Sequence record: NC_073084.1
Reading direction: 5' to 3' (one strand)
Length of the DNA stretch: 44,612 nucleotides
Source: Escherichia phage vb_EcoS_bov22_1
Positions 3,439 to 30,369 of the stretch are shown in pieces. Positions within the stretch are counted from its first letter, which is position 1, and every line of letters starts with the position of its first letter. A program made the translations under genes and the position numbers. The notes beneath the pieces were generated by a model, which saw only the letters and a list, made by a program, of their open reading frames with translations, had not been told where the DNA came from and ran no database searches.

Positions 3439-3443
3439 GGCGA

Positions 3444-3466
3444 AGGGGCCGTATGGCCCCTTTTTT
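3444..3466 (+). terminator. rho-independent terminator
   Basis: Hairpin aggggccgtatggcccct plus T6, right after the tail-fibre stop; near-identical to hairpins at 531 and 29161. Confidence 0.6.
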
Positions 3467-4082: not shown

Positions 4083-4604
4083 TTATTTCAGTGCGCTACG
4101 TACCAGTGTTTTTTCCATGTTACGGAAGTCTTCCGGCGTCATAAGGATTTTGGATCCGTCTTCGCCAGTGAGCACGACCATAGGCTGAACGTCCTGGTCT
4201 ACGACGCCGAAATTGGCGGCTTTGACTGTCATGCCCACCGATGCCGAAGGATGCCACGTCCCCGAGGTAGCGATGGGCCAACCTTTAAGGCTGTCGTATT
4301 GCGCTGCCGTTGTATCGACCTGAATCTCGTCGTGCACGGTCATGTACGACTCGCCCAGCAGGGCGGAATACGCTACCAGGTCGACGATATTGTCCTCCTG
4401 GTGCTTACGGTGCTGACGAACCAGCTTCAGGCAGATCAGGAAGGTCCAGGCTTCTTGCTCGGTAAGATCGCGCCCGGTAAGCGCGTTAAACACGGCGGCT
4501 ACCTGTTTAGCGCTGCGTTCTTCTTTCGCGTTGTCATAGCCGTTTTCTTTCCCGCGCTGTTCCATAGTGGTAGCGGCGTTTTTGCAGTATTCGTATGCTT
4601 TCAT
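4083..4604 (-). CDS. hypothetical protein with a conserved phage helical N-terminal domain
   Basis: ATG at 4604 with AAGGAAA RBS (the longer ORF start at 4730 lacks an RBS and overlaps a motif site); 173 aa. Confidence 0.55.
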   Translation of the reverse strand: MKAYEYCKNAATTMEQRGKENGYDNAKEERSAKQVAAVFNALTGRDLTEQEAWTFLICLKLVRQHRKHQEDNIVDLVAYSALLGESYMTVHDEIQVDTTAAQYDSLKGWPIATSGTWHPSASVGMTVKAANFGVVDQDVQPMVVLTGEDGSKILMTPEDFRNMEKTLVRSALK

Positions 4605-4666
4605 GATGTTTTCCTTTTTAGTGGAGGCGGTATTGCCCCCGACGTGATTAAGATACTGCAACCAAC

Positions 4667-5137
4667 CTATTGGTTGCAAGTAAATTTTGCAACGTTTATT
4701 GCGTAAATTTTCGGGACTAAATCGCTGCACGCCCGACGAATTGCCGCGATGTTCTTCGGGCAGTCTTCAATGATGACCAGTTCCGATACGTCCGCATAGC
4801 AGACCATTTTGAACACAGCGTACGCTTTAAACTCTGGCGGCGGGGTGTCGTCCAGCATGTGGCGCATGAACAACCGGCCTCTAGGGAATACTTCCAATTG
4901 CTCGGCTGTGGTGTCCCAGCATTCTCGCTGCCGGTTGGTCAGATACGCGATCTCGAAGCCTTGCTCTTTGTACATGGTCAGCAGCGGCAGCATATCCATG
5001 TTCAGATCTTCGCGTATATGCGCTTTGTGCCACTTCGCCCAAAAGGTGGATTTTGTTTTTATGCCCGGAACCAGGTCGGCACGCGCATCGCTTGAACCGT
5101 TAATAACGCCATCCAAATCGCAAATCAGTAATTTCAT
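4667..5137 (-). CDS. HAD-superfamily phosphatase (deoxyribonucleotidase or polynucleotide 3'-phosphatase-like)
   Basis: N-terminal LICDLDGV (DxDx[TV] HAD motif I); GAGGAG RBS 5 nt upstream of ATG 5137. Confidence 0.65.
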   Translation of the reverse strand: MKLLICDLDGVINGSSDARADLVPGIKTKSTFWAKWHKAHIREDLNMDMLPLLTMYKEQGFEIAYLTNRQRECWDTTAEQLEVFPRGRLFMRHMLDDTPPPEFKAYAVFKMVCYADVSELVIIEDCPKNIAAIRRACSDLVPKIYAINVAKFTCNQ

Positions 5138-5358
5138 TTCAACTCCTCGATCAGATTCATACGAACAACACGGGCCGAAAAAGCGTCACACACAAGATGA
5201 CAACTGGCGGTCATTACAAGCCAGCCGGTAAGGTGCATGCCAAGCAATTGCTCCGGGCGACTGACCCGCCGCACTTTGTTCTCCCTCGGGTTAATTTGGT
5301 AGCGTTTAACAATTTCGTCCACGACGCGCATACTGCGGTCAACGACTAAGATATTCAT
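5134..5358 (-). CDS. small hypothetical protein
   Basis: ORF with internal ATG at 5358 (track start is GTG 5367); overlaps the neighbouring genes; weak RBS. Confidence 0.35.
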   Translation of the reverse strand: MNILVVDRSMRVVDEIVKRYQINPRENKVRRVSRPEQLLGMHLTGWLVMTASCHLVCDAFSARVVRMNLIEELK

Positions 5359-5824
5359 GTAGCTCACTCTCGCTCATTATTTCAATTTGTGCGCTGCCGA
5401 TGGGTGGCGCTTCGTCAAAGATTATCAATTGCTGGCACTTGTTATTGCTCGGACCGACTTCGCCGGTGACAGCGTGAATGAATCTAATCCGCCAGTCCAG
5501 AAGAATTATCAGGTTTGCAGTCTTCCGGGCAAGCCTCGCCCACTTCGTCGACGTGTCCTGATTCAGTAGCATGACAGTCCGGCGACCGTGCGCTGCGCAT
5601 TCCACCCACGGCAGCGGGTCGGAATACGGCGGATTGCACCACTTCCACCCTTTCAACTCGGACCAGTCCACATCAAGCGCGCTGTGTTCCGCCGTGAAGT
5701 AACGCGGTAGCAGATGGTTTGCATCGCTTGCCGCCATATCGTAACGGAATCGGTACTTCCGACGAAGCGGTTTAAATAAAGCTGGCGGCGTGCGCCAGCT
5801 ATCTTTTTGCTCACTCTTCTGCAT
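5339..5824 (-). CDS. dam: DNA N6-adenine methyltransferase (phage Dam-like)
   Basis: 161 aa with WCNPPYS (NPPY catalytic motif) and short phage-type N6A-MTase architecture; ATG 5824. Confidence 0.75.
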   Translation of the reverse strand: MQKSEQKDSWRTPPALFKPLRRKYRFRYDMAASDANHLLPRYFTAEHSALDVDWSELKGWKWCNPPYSDPLPWVECAAHGRRTVMLLNQDTSTKWARLARKTANLIILLDWRIRFIHAVTGEVGPSNNKCQQLIIFDEAPPIGSAQIEIMSESELHEYLSR

Positions 5825-6269
5825 GATCTGGACCTATTGCGTACAGGGCAATTTTCTTGTCGCTGGACAGAACGCGCCGGACTCGGGCCATATCCGCCGG
5901 ACCCAGCGGTCGGCTATCGGAATAGTAGCTGCCGTTCGCACGCCACGCTATCAGCACCAGATCTTTCCGGTCGATCTTAGACTGGCGGCCCTTCGGGCGC
6001 ACGTATTCCTCGGCCCGTTTGCAATGCTCGCGCAGACCTTCGGCAGTGATGCGGTTTAGTGCAACGCTGGTTGTGTATCCGGTGCGCTGCATAATCCCCA
6101 TCAATTCGAAAAGCAGTTCGAAGCGCTCCTCTAGCTCCTGGCGCACTTTCTTCTCACCTTCATATAGCGCCTGTTTGGTGTCCGCCAGCGCGTTCGCACG
6201 TTCGGCCTGTTCGCGGGCTTCGAGGCATTGCGCGGCCCAGTATGCTTTTTCTTCTTGTAAAATTTTCAT
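5811..6269 (-). CDS. hypothetical protein
   Basis: 152-aa ORF; GGAG RBS 9 nt upstream of ATG 6269; coupled to the upstream gene (stop 6270). Confidence 0.55.
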   Translation of the reverse strand: MKILQEEKAYWAAQCLEAREQAERANALADTKQALYEGEKKVRQELEERFELLFELMGIMQRTGYTTSVALNRITAEGLREHCKRAEEYVRPKGRQSKIDRKDLVLIAWRANGSYYSDSRPLGPADMARVRRVLSSDKKIALYAIGPDHAEE

Positions 6270-6512
6270 TTATTTAATCTCCGTAGTGCGAATCTCTTTG
6301 CGTGGAATAAATTTGCCATCCATCTCCACCCAGCAGACTCCGTATCGCCATTGGGTATTACGTCCTGTTTGCTCGGCATATACGGTCTTGCATCCGTAGC
6401 GTTCCGTGTAGTAAATAGCAGCGGTAGGAACGCAAATACAAACGGCAAACATGAGGGTGAGGATCACCCAAAATCGAAGGTCGCCGTCGTAGTCGAAAAA
6501 TAATGATTTCAT
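6270..6512 (-). CDS. small membrane protein
   Basis: 80 aa with one hydrophobic helix (FWVILTLMFAVCICVPTAAIYY); GGAGA RBS upstream of ATG 6512. Confidence 0.55.
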   Translation of the reverse strand: MKSLFFDYDGDLRFWVILTLMFAVCICVPTAAIYYTERYGCKTVYAEQTGRNTQWRYGVCWVEMDGKFIPRKEIRTTEIK

Positions 6513-6530
6513 CGTGTTGTCTCCAGGTAT

Positions 6531-6557
6531 TAAAAAGGGCGTCCAAACCGGACACCC
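6531..6557 (-). terminator. terminator/attenuator hairpin (minus strand)
   Basis: On minus-strand RNA GGGUGUCC-GGUUU-GGACGCCC then UUUUUA; the stem needs a G-U pair, so it only closes on the minus-strand transcript. Confidence 0.45.
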
Positions 6558-6559
6558 TC

Positions 6560-6588
6560 AATATAATGCAACCAATATTATTATGCAA
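6560..6588 (-). promoter_or_regulatory. sigma70-like promoter (minus strand) overlapping two TTGGTTGCA motifs
   Basis: Minus strand reads TTGCAT-17 nt-TATATT; -35 lies inside the repeated motif. Confidence 0.4.
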
Positions 6589-6593
6589 CCAAT

Positions 6594-6917
6594 TTACGAA
6601 TAAAAATTTGGGTCACGTGCGACGTCTACCAGGTAAAGGTTGCTTATGCGGTTGCCGTAGTGCCCTGGTGTGCGCTGGCGGCACACAACGGCGTAGCCAG
6701 GAGGGATTGTATTTCCGGTTTCAATAATCCACGCCACACGCGCGCCCGATAGCGTCTTGCCGTTGCATTCGATACGTGTTCCGCCATCGGCAGTGTTAAG
6801 GTTGCCAATCTTGCAGCCTGTGGACTTCAGGCGGATGACGCCAGTCTTACTGTCGTAGGAAAAAAGCTGATTGGTCATTGCCACTGAAAAGTCGATGGCG
6901 TCGAATGTAGTATTCAT
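6594..6917 (-). CDS. hypothetical protein (possible degenerate HNH-type nuclease)
   Basis: 107 aa; GAGGAA RBS upstream of ATG 6917; PGHYGNRISNL loosely resembles the HNH core. Confidence 0.45.
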   Translation of the reverse strand: MNTTFDAIDFSVAMTNQLFSYDSKTGVIRLKSTGCKIGNLNTADGGTRIECNGKTLSGARVAWIIETGNTIPPGYAVVCRQRTPGHYGNRISNLYLVDVARDPNFYS

Positions 6918-7609
6918 TTTAAATTTTCCTCGTTAACCGCTATCGCGAAGCCGCGCGGAGTGAGCGAGCGGATTAATTTTGTGCGGGCTGATTTACCACC
7001 GAGGCGACTATACTGTTTCGAGTACCCTTTTTCAACGAAAACAGGTTTCTTCTCTGGCATACGGAAGCCGTTGCCGGTCCATAAGCAGGTCAGCTTCGGA
7101 TATGAATCGCGGGCGTTGATGTATTCCGGGAAGAGCGGGTGTACGTCATCCTCCGGCAGATATCCACCATACTCCCACGGATCAAACGAGTGGTCTGGCT
7201 TGCGCCACTGGGTGGAAAGCACACTGCGCGGATTCTCAATCATATATGGCACCTCGAAGAAGTCACCCAGGTAGGCGGCGATCTTCGCGGTGCGCACCGC
7301 CTTAAGCTGAAAGGCCGGGTCTTTCGCACGCTTGCGCGGGAAAGCTGGCGCGCCGCTCACTGCCAGATCCGTACACGGAGGGAACGCATAGATGATATCC
7401 GGCGTACCGAAATCGCCATTCATCGCGCGGTCTACGAAGTCCAGATCGATAAACTCATTGCGATACCGGATTCCGCGGCCATAAATCCGGTAGTCAAGGT
7501 ACGACCCGTGATCGGCTTCGGAGTAGTTAAAACAGTAGCACTTATGCCCCATCTCGGCAGCACGCTCAATCATCAAGCCGCTGCCGTCGAACAATGACCA
7601 GATTATCAT
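6914..7609 (-). CDS. DNA (cytosine-5)-methyltransferase-like protein (short form)
   Basis: FDGSG (motif I FxGxG), FPPC (motif IV catalytic Pro-Cys), ENP (motif VI); only 231 aa. Confidence 0.65.
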   Translation of the reverse strand: MIIWSLFDGSGLMIERAAEMGHKCYCFNYSEADHGSYLDYRIYGRGIRYRNEFIDLDFVDRAMNGDFGTPDIIYAFPPCTDLAVSGAPAFPRKRAKDPAFQLKAVRTAKIAAYLGDFFEVPYMIENPRSVLSTQWRKPDHSFDPWEYGGYLPEDDVHPLFPEYINARDSYPKLTCLWTGNGFRMPEKKPVFVEKGYSKQYSRLGGKSARTKLIRSLTPRGFAIAVNEENLK

Positions 7610-9030
7610 TTGCGCGCCTTTTTAGCTTTCATGTATTCCATCAAATCGTCCTGAATATCTCGCTTACTGTCACGACGCTCGGCGACCAATTCGTCCAGTG
7701 TCCCGCGCGCCTGGATAATGTAGACGAATACAGGTCTAGGGTGTCCGGCCTGCATCTGGCGAACCGGCCCGATACGTTCAACGATCTGCGAAAAGTGCTC
7801 AAAGTTCCAGGTATCAGAGAAGATTGCCAGGTGATGACCGCCGTCCTGCAAGTTAAGGCCGTGGCCCGCCGATGCCGGGTGTGCAAACATGATGGGGATC
7901 TCGCCCCTGTTCCACGCTTCCATATCCTTATTGCCCTGCTTACCCTTACCCAACGCAACGCCGTGCGGGAATTTCTTCTTGAGACGCGCCAGATCATGCT
8001 TGTACTGGTATGCGACGAGCAACGGTGCGCCGTTCAACTCCTCCACGATACTTTCCAGCGCGTCCAGTTTAGCGTCGTGAATTTTCACCCATTCATCGGT
8101 GCGCTCGCCGTCTTCGTCGACTTTATACACGGCCCCCGAAGCAAGCTGAAGGCACTTAATTGTCTTCGATGCCGCGTTCGCCGCCTCCACTGTTCCGCTT
8201 TCCAGTTCGGCAAATAGCTCGCTTTCAAACTGGTCATAAATCTTGCGCGCTTTCTTCGGCAGGTCCACGACAACCGGAGTATAGATTGGCTTGTCGCACC
8301 CGAAGTATTCAGCCGCGTCAACGGTTAGGGATACATCAGACAGGCGTTGTTGTATTTCTTTCTCAGAGTTCTTTAGCGGGGCGTGCTGCATAGTGAAGCT
8401 GCCAGGCTTAACAGGCTTGCTAATGAACCAGCGATCGGTAAACGCCTTATAGCTACTGCCGAGGCGTTCGCCACCGTCGACAAACCACGTCTGACCCCAT
8501 AAGTCTTTCAGCCCGTTTGGCGCTGGTGTGCCGGTCAGGTTAATCCAGCGCTTGACGTGCTTATGTGCGATCGCCGCCAGTGCGCGTGCGCGCTTACTAC
8601 CCTGCTTGCTTCGGTAGCCTTTCAGCTTAGTCGATTCATCGGCAACAACGACCGTAAAGGGCCATGCATCGCCGTAATAGTCAACCAGCCACTCAACCAC
8701 ATCATAGTTAACACAAACCACGTTAGCGTCGCTCTCAAGCGCTGCGATACGGTCCTTCTCCGGCCCAGTGCCGTCTACGACCAGTAGGGATGAGAACCGC
8801 CATTTCTCCTGCTCCGGGGGCCATGTACCTGACGCGACACGCAGCGGGGCCAGCACCAGTACGCGGTCCTCATGATGGGACAGGACGCCAGTCTGGAACA
8901 TTTTATTCAGCGCCCACATTGTCGCGCCGGTTTTACCGGATCCCATTGTCGCCCAGATATTACATCGCTTATGCTTGAGGATGAACGCGGTTATCAACTT
9001 CTGATATTCGCGGCGTCGGAATCGTGCCAT
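7606..9030 (-). CDS. SNF2/DEAD-like DNA helicase
   Basis: Walker A MGSGKTGA, Walker B/DEAD-like VVADESTK, LTGTP, helicase motif VI-like AGHGLNLQ; start chosen at ATG 9030 (MARFRR), immediately after the upstream stop. Confidence 0.8.
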   Translation of the reverse strand: MARFRRREYQKLITAFILKHKRCNIWATMGSGKTGATMWALNKMFQTGVLSHHEDRVLVLAPLRVASGTWPPEQEKWRFSSLLVVDGTGPEKDRIAALESDANVVCVNYDVVEWLVDYYGDAWPFTVVVADESTKLKGYRSKQGSKRARALAAIAHKHVKRWINLTGTPAPNGLKDLWGQTWFVDGGERLGSSYKAFTDRWFISKPVKPGSFTMQHAPLKNSEKEIQQRLSDVSLTVDAAEYFGCDKPIYTPVVVDLPKKARKIYDQFESELFAELESGTVEAANAASKTIKCLQLASGAVYKVDEDGERTDEWVKIHDAKLDALESIVEELNGAPLLVAYQYKHDLARLKKKFPHGVALGKGKQGNKDMEAWNRGEIPIMFAHPASAGHGLNLQDGGHHLAIFSDTWNFEHFSQIVERIGPVRQMQAGHPRPVFVYIIQARGTLDELVAERRDSKRDIQDDLMEYMKAKKARK

Positions 9031-9034
9031 TTCT

Positions 9035-9253
9035 TTATTCCGCCTTTTTCCAGACTTCGGTTTCACTGTTCCAGTTCCTTTTTGTAGCGTCGTAGTTGGT
9101 GGCGTGTCCGATGTGCACACCGGTAGCCCGGAAGCTCTTAAATTTTTGCCAGCACACCGTCAACGGCAGCGGATCATTCATGCCCGCAATAAACCATACG
9201 CGATCGCCCGGTTTACATTCGCCCAGCTTGGTGAGTCGGTAATGTTCTTTCAT
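9035..9253 (-). CDS. hypothetical protein
   Basis: 72 aa from ATG 9253 with GGAG RBS; preceded by a hairpin plus U-run. Confidence 0.5.
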   Translation of the reverse strand: MKEHYRLTKLGECKPGDRVWFIAGMNDPLPLTVCWQKFKSFRATGVHIGHATNYDATKRNWNSETEVWKKAE

Positions 9254-9501: not shown

Positions 9502-9530
9502 ACTATACCGCTATGCGACCAATTCAGCAA
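9502..9530 (-). promoter_or_regulatory. sigma70-like promoter (minus strand) overlapping motif copies
   Basis: Minus strand TTGCTG-17 nt-TATAGT upstream of the zinc-ribbon gene; embedded in the 3' end of the VRR-NUC ORF. Confidence 0.4.
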
Positions 9531-9789
9531 CCAATAAATCGCAGTCGGATATGTTGTCGATAACGCGAACGTCAGCACCGCGGCGGGCCATTCGCTCATG
9601 TTCACGTACCTGGTGCGGCTTCGGTTTTCCTCCGGGGCGCTTCACTTCGACGAACACTATTTTGCCGTTGATGATAATAATCAGGTCGGGCGCACCCGCG
9701 CGCCCCTCCCATGCCAGTTTTCGGCAGAATCCGCCGACCTCTTTCACCCGTTTCATCAGGTGACTTTGAATCTTGCCTTCCGGTGTCAT
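9511..9789 (-). CDS. VRR-NUC domain nuclease
   Basis: DLIIIINGKIVFVEVKRPGGK (D ... E-V-K core); start at ATG 9789 (MTPEGK), overlapping the polymerase stop; the longer track ORF would overlap the polymerase gene. Confidence 0.7.
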   Translation of the reverse strand: MTPEGKIQSHLMKRVKEVGGFCRKLAWEGRAGAPDLIIIINGKIVFVEVKRPGGKPKPHQVREHERMARRGADVRVIDNISDCDLLVAELVA

Positions 9790-13088: not shown

Positions 13089-13178
13089 TTTCCAATTCCT
13101 CATTTTCACATGTATCGGGGTTATTGGAAGCCACCCCGTTCGGCTTGGTTGCCAATTTACTTGGTTGCGCCTGAGCGG

Positions 13179-15851: not shown

Positions 15852-16088
15852 GGTATATCTCCGATTGGTTAAGTTTAGGTGTCGGCAGTTAACTTCGTCG
15901 GTGGCCTTAACATATTGCCAGGTTACGCGTTCTCCCGTTCGGGTAGTGGACCTGGTTATATAATCACGGTTGGGAATCCTGACACTTCGATCCGGCCCCT
16001 GCGTTGCCCCTCTCCAGTTTGCGTCCTGCATCCTGTCGACGGGGTGAATAATAGATTGGTTGCAGGATGGGTGTCAACAACTAATTTC

Positions 16089-16124
16089 AAAAAAAAAAGC
16101 GCCGAGGCAAAATGCGACGGCGCT
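16089..16124 (-). terminator. rho-independent terminator (minus strand) within the divergent control region
   Basis: Minus strand AGCGCCG-13 nt loop-CGGCGCU followed by U10. Confidence 0.4.
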
Positions 16125-16194
16125 AACCAATAAGAGACAATGAGACGGGAATTATTATTACACGCGTGCGCGCCCGTTTCAATATCCAAAGGAT

Positions 16195-18859: not shown

Positions 18860-18904
18860 AATTTGCGCGCATTGGTTGCCGTTTTAAGTGTTTTTATCTG
18901 GTCG

Positions 18905-18933
18905 TATTGGTTGCCGTGTAGTGTAGATATAAT
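18905..18933 (+). promoter_or_regulatory. candidate promoter reading into the iteron/hairpin element
   Basis: Perfect -10 TATAAT at 18928-18933 with TTGGTT/ATTGGT 15-17 nt upstream. Confidence 0.35.
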
Positions 18934-19126: not shown

Positions 19127-19282
19127 AAATCCGGGGATTGCAAAACACACGGCAGCATGATGCGAAGTGCGGTCGCGGATGAACTAGGCAACCAATGCTA
19201 GTAGCATTATGCTGAGTGAAAAATGCGGTTTGCAGTTGCAGCAGATAGCGATCAACTTTTTCATGCGCGTTATTAATATTGG

Positions 19283-19311
19283 TTGCATCCGCCCAGGCAC
19301 CCTGCTATATT
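19283..19311 (+). promoter_or_regulatory. sigma70-like promoter with paired TTGGTTGCA motifs
   Basis: TTGCAT-17 nt-TATATT, then GGTTGCACACCAACAGGAGG and ATG 19339; the 22-mer TATATTGGTTGCACACCAACAG recurs on the minus strand at 30323-30344. Confidence 0.45.
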
Positions 19312-19338
19312 GGTTGCACACCAACAGGAGGGCGGAAC

Positions 19339-22510: not shown

Positions 22511-22571
22511 GCTTGACTCGCAACCAACACAGGGGCCATACTGCAACCAATCAACTGGAGGAGTAATCAAG

Positions 22572-30304: not shown

Positions 30305-30339
30305 TTTGTTTTCCTTCATATCTCTGTTGGTGTGCAACC

Positions 30340-30369
30340 AATATACTGCAACCAACATCCGCAATGCAA
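30340..30369 (-). promoter_or_regulatory. sigma70-like promoter (minus strand) for the reverse cassette
   Basis: Minus strand TTGCAT-18 nt-TATATTGGTTGCACACCAACAG, matching the promoter at 19283. Confidence 0.4.

Follow-up and report, generated by a model that had tools for sequence, protein, structure and literature searches.

Two genes in the genome of Escherichia phage vb_EcoS_bov22_1 raise the question of what a cytosine methyltransferase of only 231 amino acids (aa) is, and what it and its adenine-methylating neighbor do for the phage. We analyzed the sequence record NC_073084.1 over its full length of 44,612 nucleotides (nt), hereafter the window, with a focus on positions 5339-7609. A first-pass annotation had placed two DNA methyltransferases here, a Dam-like N6-adenine enzyme and an unusually short C5-cytosine enzyme, and had proposed that they lie in the same early operon and counter restriction by self-methylation. 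Both open reading frames (ORFs) were confirmed on the minus strand, at 5339-5824 and 6914-7609, by the ORF list, translation and family matches. Taken together, our data indicate that the region very probably holds two orphan S-adenosylmethionine (SAM)-dependent DNA methyltransferases within the leftward array of replication genes in a Dhillonvirus, a Dam-family adenine enzyme and a minimal C5-cytosine enzyme, for which an anti-restriction role would be the most likely.

The gene at 6914-7609 (minus strand) encodes the 231-aa protein, which we assign to the minimal, phage "Dcm-like" C5-cytosine DNA methyltransferases of the phrog_757 family on the basis of its family match, its predicted fold and its identity to the Dcm of phage KarlJaspers. 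Translation and alignments place motif I, the SAM-binding loop after strand beta-1, at FDGSG (residues 7-11; 7577-7591, minus strand). Motif IV is the PPC at residues 77-79 (7373-7381, minus strand) with the predicted catalytic nucleophile Cys79, and motif VI is the ENP at residues 125-127 (7229-7237, minus strand), where Glu125 is the counterpart of the ENV glutamate. The match to phrog_757, labelled "DNA methyltransferase", covers residues 1-229 (E=2e-82). Homologues are abundant, with 2,886 in a large protein collection and a presence in 1,529 phage records, and a profile search with the family returned 1,944 clusters at 50% identity, mostly of 210-260 aa. Conservation was assessed in two alignments, one of 41 closer homologues (A1) and one of 55 diverse members with a mean column identity of 36% (A2). 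Cys79 (55/55), Glu125 and Pro127 are invariant in A2, and conservation reaches 90% or more at Asn126, Arg136 and Lys172. Within motif I, F7, G9, S10 and G11 are invariant in A1, and the first Gly varies among the more distant family members in A2. Since conservation across the 55 homologues is this strict, FDGSG, PPC and ENP are not chance matches, and the earlier assignment of C5-methyltransferase motifs I, IV and VI is borne out.

The AlphaFold2 model of the protein (predicted local distance difference test (pLDDT) 87.9, predicted template-modelling score 0.87) fits a class I SAM-methyltransferase fold of the C5-methyltransferase type. A Foldseek search of this model against the PDB gave 57 matches at E<=1e-3, the best with E=4.3e-6, a probability of 1.00 and a template-modelling score of ~0.5. 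All 50 matches listed are C5-methyltransferases, comprising 49 catalytic-domain chains of DNMT3A/3B/3C and the CP-933R prophage methyltransferase 3g7u. Canonical viral C5-methyltransferases also match the model structurally, at E 1e-4 to 1e-5. At the sequence level, the family profile retrieved only M.HaeIII from the PDB sequences, weakly (E=0.38), with motifs I-IV lined up. FDGSG lies opposite FSGAGG of M.HaeIII and FAGIGG of E. coli Dcm, PPC opposite the PPCQ/FPCQ of the same two enzymes, and ENP opposite LENV of E. coli Dcm. Judged by conservation and by the model, the 231-aa protein is a genuine member of the C5-cytosine methyltransferase family that has kept the catalytic Cys and Glu.

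We next consider its size. E. coli Dcm has 472 aa, M.HaeIII 324 aa and DNMT3 catalytic constructs ~270-290 aa; the phage protein is thus about half as long as E. coli Dcm and ~30% shorter than M.HaeIII. The description "unusually short" holds against these canonical enzymes and fails within the phage family, where ~230 aa is the norm; the size is typical of the known, active phage family to which the protein belongs. In the AlphaFold2 model, the catalytic core occupies residues 1-142 and a motif-X-like helix closes the C-terminus at residues 219-229. Residues 136-220 (6950-7204, minus strand) comprise Arg136 (in WRKP), a compact ordered module delimited by conservation and pLDDT, and the basic segment LGGKSARTKLIRSLTPRG. 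This module spans ~75 residues where canonical enzymes carry motif IX and a large variable target-recognition domain (TRD), and its conserved residues are P144, D168, Y170, K172, T174, W177 and P185. The mean top-residue frequency in A2 is 0.60-0.65 at residues 143-180 and 203-224, compared to 0.23 at residues 30-69, and pLDDT is mostly >90 at residues 140-200. Because the module is as conserved across the family as the active-site motifs, it may be a compact recognition unit common to all members, which would imply a shared specificity or a shared DNA-binding mode. The first-pass annotation had reasoned that the protein has either a minimal target-recognition region or another role. The stretch of only ~75 residues that separates a putative motif VIII from the helix at the C-terminus agrees with the former. 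The latter is unlikely, given the C5-methyltransferase fold, the retained Cys and Glu and the membership of an experimentally active family.

That activity was demonstrated for a close relative of a homologue from KarlJaspers (Bas06). Its gene bas06_0055 (711 bp) encodes a 236-aa Dcm with 54% identity to the 231-aa protein over the full length (E=1e-86). All mutants of the KarlJaspers-like phage K42 that escaped retron Ec86 carried a disrupted 711-bp dcm, and K42 dcm expressed alone was toxic only when retron Ec86 was present (bioRxiv 10.1101/2023.08.16.553469; per a later reference list, Cell Rep 2024;43:114857). Liquid chromatography-mass spectrometry detected high levels of 5-methylcytosine (5mC) on the multicopy single-stranded DNA (msDNA) with wild-type K42 Dcm and not with a C82A/E128A/K175A/K176A mutant. 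When the CCTGG motif in the msDNA stem-loop was altered, the defense of retron Ec86 was lost; this work was done in strain MG1655, where msDNA 5mC was low and the retron silent without the phage enzyme (same preprint). C82, E128 and K175 of K42 Dcm align to C79, E125 and K172 of the 231-aa protein. By analogy with this homologue, 5mC formation by the 231-aa protein would be expected. The enzyme would keep a Rossmann-type core with the SAM loop FDGSG, Cys79, Glu125 and Arg136, and would carry the ~75-residue module in the place of the TRD. As in all C5-methyltransferases, the target cytosine would be flipped and Cys79 would attack C6; the SAM methyl group would then pass to C5, and beta-elimination would free the enzyme. 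The gene predicts a possible sensitivity of Dhillonvirus to retron Eco1-type, methylation-sensing defenses. A further idea, which we regard as tentative and rather doubtful, is that the conserved module gives a recognition unlike that of E. coli Dcm, be it through a different or relaxed specificity, through dimeric read-out as in DNMT3 or because hairpins or replicating DNA are preferred. If true, a distinct recognition mode would explain why the phage enzyme, and not host Dcm, methylates msDNA and triggers retron Ec86, and proteins of ~230 aa would be the smallest self-sufficient C5-DNA methyltransferases.

The second enzyme is more conventional. The 161-aa protein encoded at 5339-5824 (minus strand) is a phage Dam-family N6-adenine DNA methyltransferase (PF05869, phrog_111). 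It scores 122.5 bits with the Pfam "Dam" model PF05869 (cut-off 28.1; E=1.9e-35), over positions 5-152 of the 169 in the profile, and matches phrog_111 at E=5e-55 and the PADLOC orphan-methyltransferase model at 7.5e-11. Its translation contains DMAAS at residues 29-33 (5726-5740, minus strand) and NPPY at residues 64-67 (5624-5635, minus strand). The PF05869 score and the translated NPPY confirm the earlier call of a Dam-like N6-adenine methyltransferase. The protein scores 86.1 bits against NCBIfam TIGR01712, under the equivalog cut-off of 97.05. It is 36.7% identical to the Dam-type genes of Stx phages, and about 27-37% identical to members outside Dhillonvirus generally. At so low an identity, GATC specificity is not confidently transferable to it. 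The PF05869 family also includes non-specific adenine methyltransferases (Hia5/Hin1523). Such activity is unlikely here, to judge from relatives, because Dhillonviruses of the BASEL study with a 96%-identical protein stay sensitive to EcoRI, EcoRV and EcoP1I. The enzyme presumably methylates adenine N6 through its NPPY active site at one defined site, for which the family precedent is GATC.

What would the pair contribute to infection? The most likely role would be to methylate replicating phage DNA and thereby shield it from a few enzymes, such as EcoRII-type CCWGG cutters or GATC-type cutters. The cost of such an anti-restriction function would be borne in hosts with methylation-sensing defenses, as in the retron Ec86/Eco1 abortive infection that the K42 homologue triggers. 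GATC occurs at 179 sites in the genome (observed/expected 0.83) and CCWGG at 141 (0.87). Both are near expectation and not avoided, so they carry no information on enzyme specificity; the frequencies are compatible with protection without proving it. Other motifs are depleted in the window, strongly for PstI CTGCAG (1 vs 10.5 expected) and also for GGCC (167 vs 239), CTAG (21 vs 54) and TATA (69 vs 115). Restriction data exist for the BASEL Dhillonvirus PaulFeyerabend, whose Dcm-like gene is 99.1% and whose Dam-like gene is 96% identical. In BASEL, PaulFeyerabend plated at ~1.5e-4 to 2.8e-4 on EcoRI and formed no plaques on EcoRV, and it plated at ~4e-6 to 1e-5 on EcoCFT_II and at ~5e-6 to 1.7e-4 on EcoP1I, both type III systems. 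A phage with 96-99.1% identical genes is thus still strongly restricted, and the proposal of self-methylation as an anti-restriction strategy is plausible, not demonstrated. These data are compatible with a narrow anti-restriction role, because none of the restriction-modification systems in BASEL recognizes CCWGG or GATC. Any protection would, by analogy, be limited to sites such as these.

Several observations weigh against two active methyltransferases with an anti-restriction role. The 231-aa protein has no Pfam match at E<=0.1, PF00145 included, and that model is matched by only 2 of the 55 diverse family members at E<0.01 (best E=0.0039). An hhalign comparison of the family profile with the single sequence of E. 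coli Dcm is weak (E=0.056 over 127 columns), with motifs I, IV and VI correctly placed. The homologue from which activity is expected stands at a distance of 54% identity, and K176, one of the residues mutated in K42 Dcm, corresponds to Leu173. The BASEL authors saw no straightforward relation between the methyltransferase genes of a phage and its resistance to restriction, and an anti-restriction benefit is invisible against the six systems tried there. The specificity of K42 Dcm for CCWGG is likewise not established, having been assumed from the name of the enzyme with the msDNA mutants as its support. E. coli MG1655 is dcm+ and McrBC+. The CCWGG assignment is not secure because msDNA is little methylated in this dcm+ strain without the phage enzyme. 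Two readings fit this: msDNA is a poor substrate for host Dcm, or the two enzymes have different specificities or substrate preferences. K42 Dcm is also non-toxic in this McrBC+ strain without the retron, which argues against R-5mC products.

Two alternatives would deny the 231-aa protein an independent activity on DNA, and we consider both highly improbable. It might not be a DNA cytosine methyltransferase here at all, being instead an RNA/tRNA m5C enzyme (Dnmt2-like), a transferase of another group or a dead DNA-binding protein. Consistent with this, no curated C5-methyltransferase model matches it (neither NCBIfam nor PADLOC models gave a match, nor did PDB sequences), and alignment A1 shows neither QxRxR (motif VIII) nor GNAV (motif X) in its canonical form. 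However, conservation is strict at the SAM loop, at the catalytic Cys and at the Glu of ENP, the best structural matches are DNA C5-methyltransferases, and the homologous K42 Dcm makes 5mC in DNA while its catalytic mutant does not. Alternatively, the C5-methyltransferase could be split, like M.AquI or M.EcoHK31I, so that the protein is a single subunit and needs a separate recognition subunit such as the product of the adjacent 107-aa ORF (6594-6917, minus strand). The lack of a canonical TRD speaks for a split enzyme, and so does the start of this ORF, which overlaps the Dcm-like stop codon (ATGA) and suggests translational coupling. Yet the ORF resembles HNH homing endonucleases (phrog_99, E=1.3e-16) and is missing beside the Dcm-like homologues in RB49, Jerseyvirus, Webervirus, Vequintavirus and Hanrivervirus. 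No other neighbor is conserved across the six lineages compared (Dhillonvirus, Hanrivervirus, Krischvirus RB49, Jerseyvirus, Webervirus and Vequintavirus). The AlphaFold2 model, in turn, is a complete and confident single domain that includes the C-terminal motif-X-like helix, and plasmid-expressed K42 Dcm alone methylates msDNA and triggers the retron. A split enzyme is very unlikely because the neighbors differ by lineage and the K42 enzyme works alone.

More weight, though still a minor share, goes to the possibility that both methyltransferases are active and that their main selected function is other than the evasion of classical restriction. They could provide co-replicative marking, with effects on replication, packaging or gene timing, or could counter other defenses; the short enzyme may then prefer hairpin or single-stranded DNA or replication forks, unlike E. 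coli Dcm. The high sensitivity of near-identical BASEL Dhillonviruses to EcoRI, EcoRV, EcoCFT_II and EcoP1I favors this view, as does the lack of a pattern between methyltransferase genes and restriction resistance in that study. So does genomic context: helicase or primase genes near the Dcm-like gene are the sole recurrent arrangement, found in four unrelated lineages (Dhillonvirus, Jerseyvirus, Vequintavirus and Webervirus), and a structural relative with 27% identity lies within A0A6J5SE15, a protein of 1,397 aa that comes from an uncultured phage and is annotated as a helicase. Moreover, the K42 homologue is known to act on the msDNA stem-loop, which host Dcm leaves largely unmethylated in MG1655. 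On the other side, the BASEL systems lack CCWGG or GATC recognition and so are compatible with narrow anti-restriction, orphan phage methyltransferases that protect against cognate restriction enzymes are an established precedent, and a regulatory role is without direct support in this analysis. We retain two orphan DNA methyltransferases with a presumed narrow anti-restriction role as the best explanation. The targets, the way 231 residues read DNA and the benefit that outweighs retron sensing are matters of the whole family more than of this locus. For methylome data on Dhillonvirus, Drexlerviridae or the phrog_757-type family, the literature gave nothing beyond the retron study and BASEL.

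Directly upstream of the Dcm-like gene lies an SNF2-family helicase gene (7606-9120, minus strand; Pfam SNF2-rel_dom, 1.8e-10). Its stop codon overlaps the Dcm-like start (ATGA, junction GCAAATGATAA), which suggests translational coupling. The 107-aa ORF downstream covers positions 108-198 of the 383 in the phrog_99 profile and reaches only E=0.05 against Pfam HNH_3. It is labelled HNH or homing endonuclease in relatives and may be a homing endonuclease that has been truncated or has degenerated. Two further small ORFs precede the Dam-like gene, both on the minus strand: one of 80 aa (6270-6512) with a match to phrog_18961, of unknown function, and one of 152 aa (5811-6269) with a match to phrog_10530, labelled "DNA ligase", without Pfam support. 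Some relatives carry the ligase label for the latter, which is far below ligase size, and one record notes "Possible DNA ligase but no evidence"; the label is probably an annotation error that has been copied between records. Downstream of the Dam-like gene, at 4083-5137 (minus strand), are two genes of 156 and 215 aa. The former encodes a HAD-type phosphatase or polynucleotide-kinase-like protein (phrog_415; Pfam Acid_phosphat_B under cut-off), and the latter a DUF6378 protein whose PHROG label "phosphofructokinase" looks doubtful.

Both methyltransferase genes lie within a co-directional minus-strand array that runs from ~16031 to 3465. Upstream of it are two predicted sigma-70-like promoters, both strong, at 16077-16048 (11/12 matches) and 16182-16154, and a consensus terminator scan listed hairpins at 15324-15305 and 9289-9273 and a bidirectional one at 3442-3463. 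The stretch from 9268 to 3465 is tightly packed, with the ATGA overlaps at the helicase/Dcm-like and Dcm-like/HNH-like junctions. Between the two methyltransferase genes are the three small ORFs and a single gap of 81 nt, the only real one in this stretch. Within this gap (6513-6593, minus strand), TTGGTTGCA occurs twice in direct orientation (6584-6592 and 6567-6575), and a hairpin and a T-run follow. The hairpin (6527-6554, minus strand) is GC-rich and terminator-like, with the form GGGTGTCC-GGTTT-GGACGCCC, then TTTTTAA, and a centroid fold of -17.6 kcal/mol; it was not among the hits of the consensus terminator scan. The first-pass claim of a shared early operon fits the co-directional, tightly packed array, with neither operon nor early timing established. 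A common operon is plausible and a reasonable guess from gene order, not shown because the gap holds a repeat pair and a terminator-like hairpin. "Early" would follow only from the position downstream of the sigma-70-like promoters at 16048-16182.

The repeat itself is over-represented genome-wide. We counted 12 exact and 12 one-mismatch copies of TTGGTTGCA, a total of 24 compared to 11.6 +/- 3.2 expected, and 0 of 100 shuffles reached 24. Most copies are paired, 13-31 nt apart, and lie in intergenic gaps a short way upstream of an ORF start, frequently in the form TAT(A)TTGGTTGCA. The paired sites are at 6567-6592, 4657-4678, 9514-9534, 13145-13169, 18872-18915, 19279-19318, 22519-22550 and 30333-30355, with single sites at 1796, 16056 and 20038. 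From this distribution, TTGGTTGCA probably serves the phage as a promoter or operator.

Over the 4.6 kb around both genes, the sequence matches Escherichia phage vb_EcoS_bov11C2 (Dhillonvirus) and three sibling isolates at 100% identity, and ~150 other Dhillonvirus (HK578-like) coliphages at 90-94%. Compared with the full GenBank record, the window is a circular permutation of the 44.7-kb vb_EcoS_bov11C2 genome. The 231-aa gene (6914-7609, corresponding to MT884012.2 27508-28203) is a "hypothetical protein" in the record of this identical phage and a "Dcm-like C5 cytosine methyltransferase" in sibling Dhillonviruses, so the gene in MT884012.2 is open to re-annotation. Both methyltransferases are ordinary for Dhillonvirus and have been reported before, in publications as well as in databases. 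Little is new at this locus: the genome is already in GenBank, the families are routinely annotated in siblings, and the activity of the short family and its role as retron trigger are published. The broader point is that phrog_757 is an abundant phage family overlooked by the curated resources Pfam PF00145, NCBIfam and PADLOC.

Compared with known systems, the Dam-like protein resembles the phage Dam family PF05869/TIGR01712 (T1 Dam and the Dam of Stx phages 933W/VT2) in its full-length PF05869 match with DxAA and NPPY, in its size class (161 aa vs the 169-position model) and as an orphan gene within a phage replication region. It differs from the core of that family in that the TIGR01712 equivalog score is not reached and in its identity of only ~27-37% outside Dhillonvirus. 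The 231-aa protein shares with canonical C5-methyltransferases (PF00145: E. coli Dcm, M.HaeIII, M.HhaI and DNMT3A/B) the fold, the motif order I-IV-VI and presumably the covalent catalysis. In contrast to them, it escapes the PF00145 model and has no large variable TRD, vsr-like repair partner or cognate restriction enzyme. We also considered and rejected orthology to E. coli Dcm (hhalign E=0.056, 231 vs 472 aa, no vsr-like gene nearby); none of ten longer family members (292-453 aa) scanned with Pfam for informative fusions contained domains. K42/KarlJaspers Dcm differs in its phage background (Drexlerviridae, Hanrivervirus, vs Dhillonvirus), in the Leu at the K176 position and, for KarlJaspers, in divergent residues 190-202 with a 2-residue indel. 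It has the same phrog_757 architecture (236 vs 231 aa), keeps the catalytic Cys and Glu and the counterpart of Lys172, and is likewise encoded by a gene that stands alone in the replication region of its small siphovirus.

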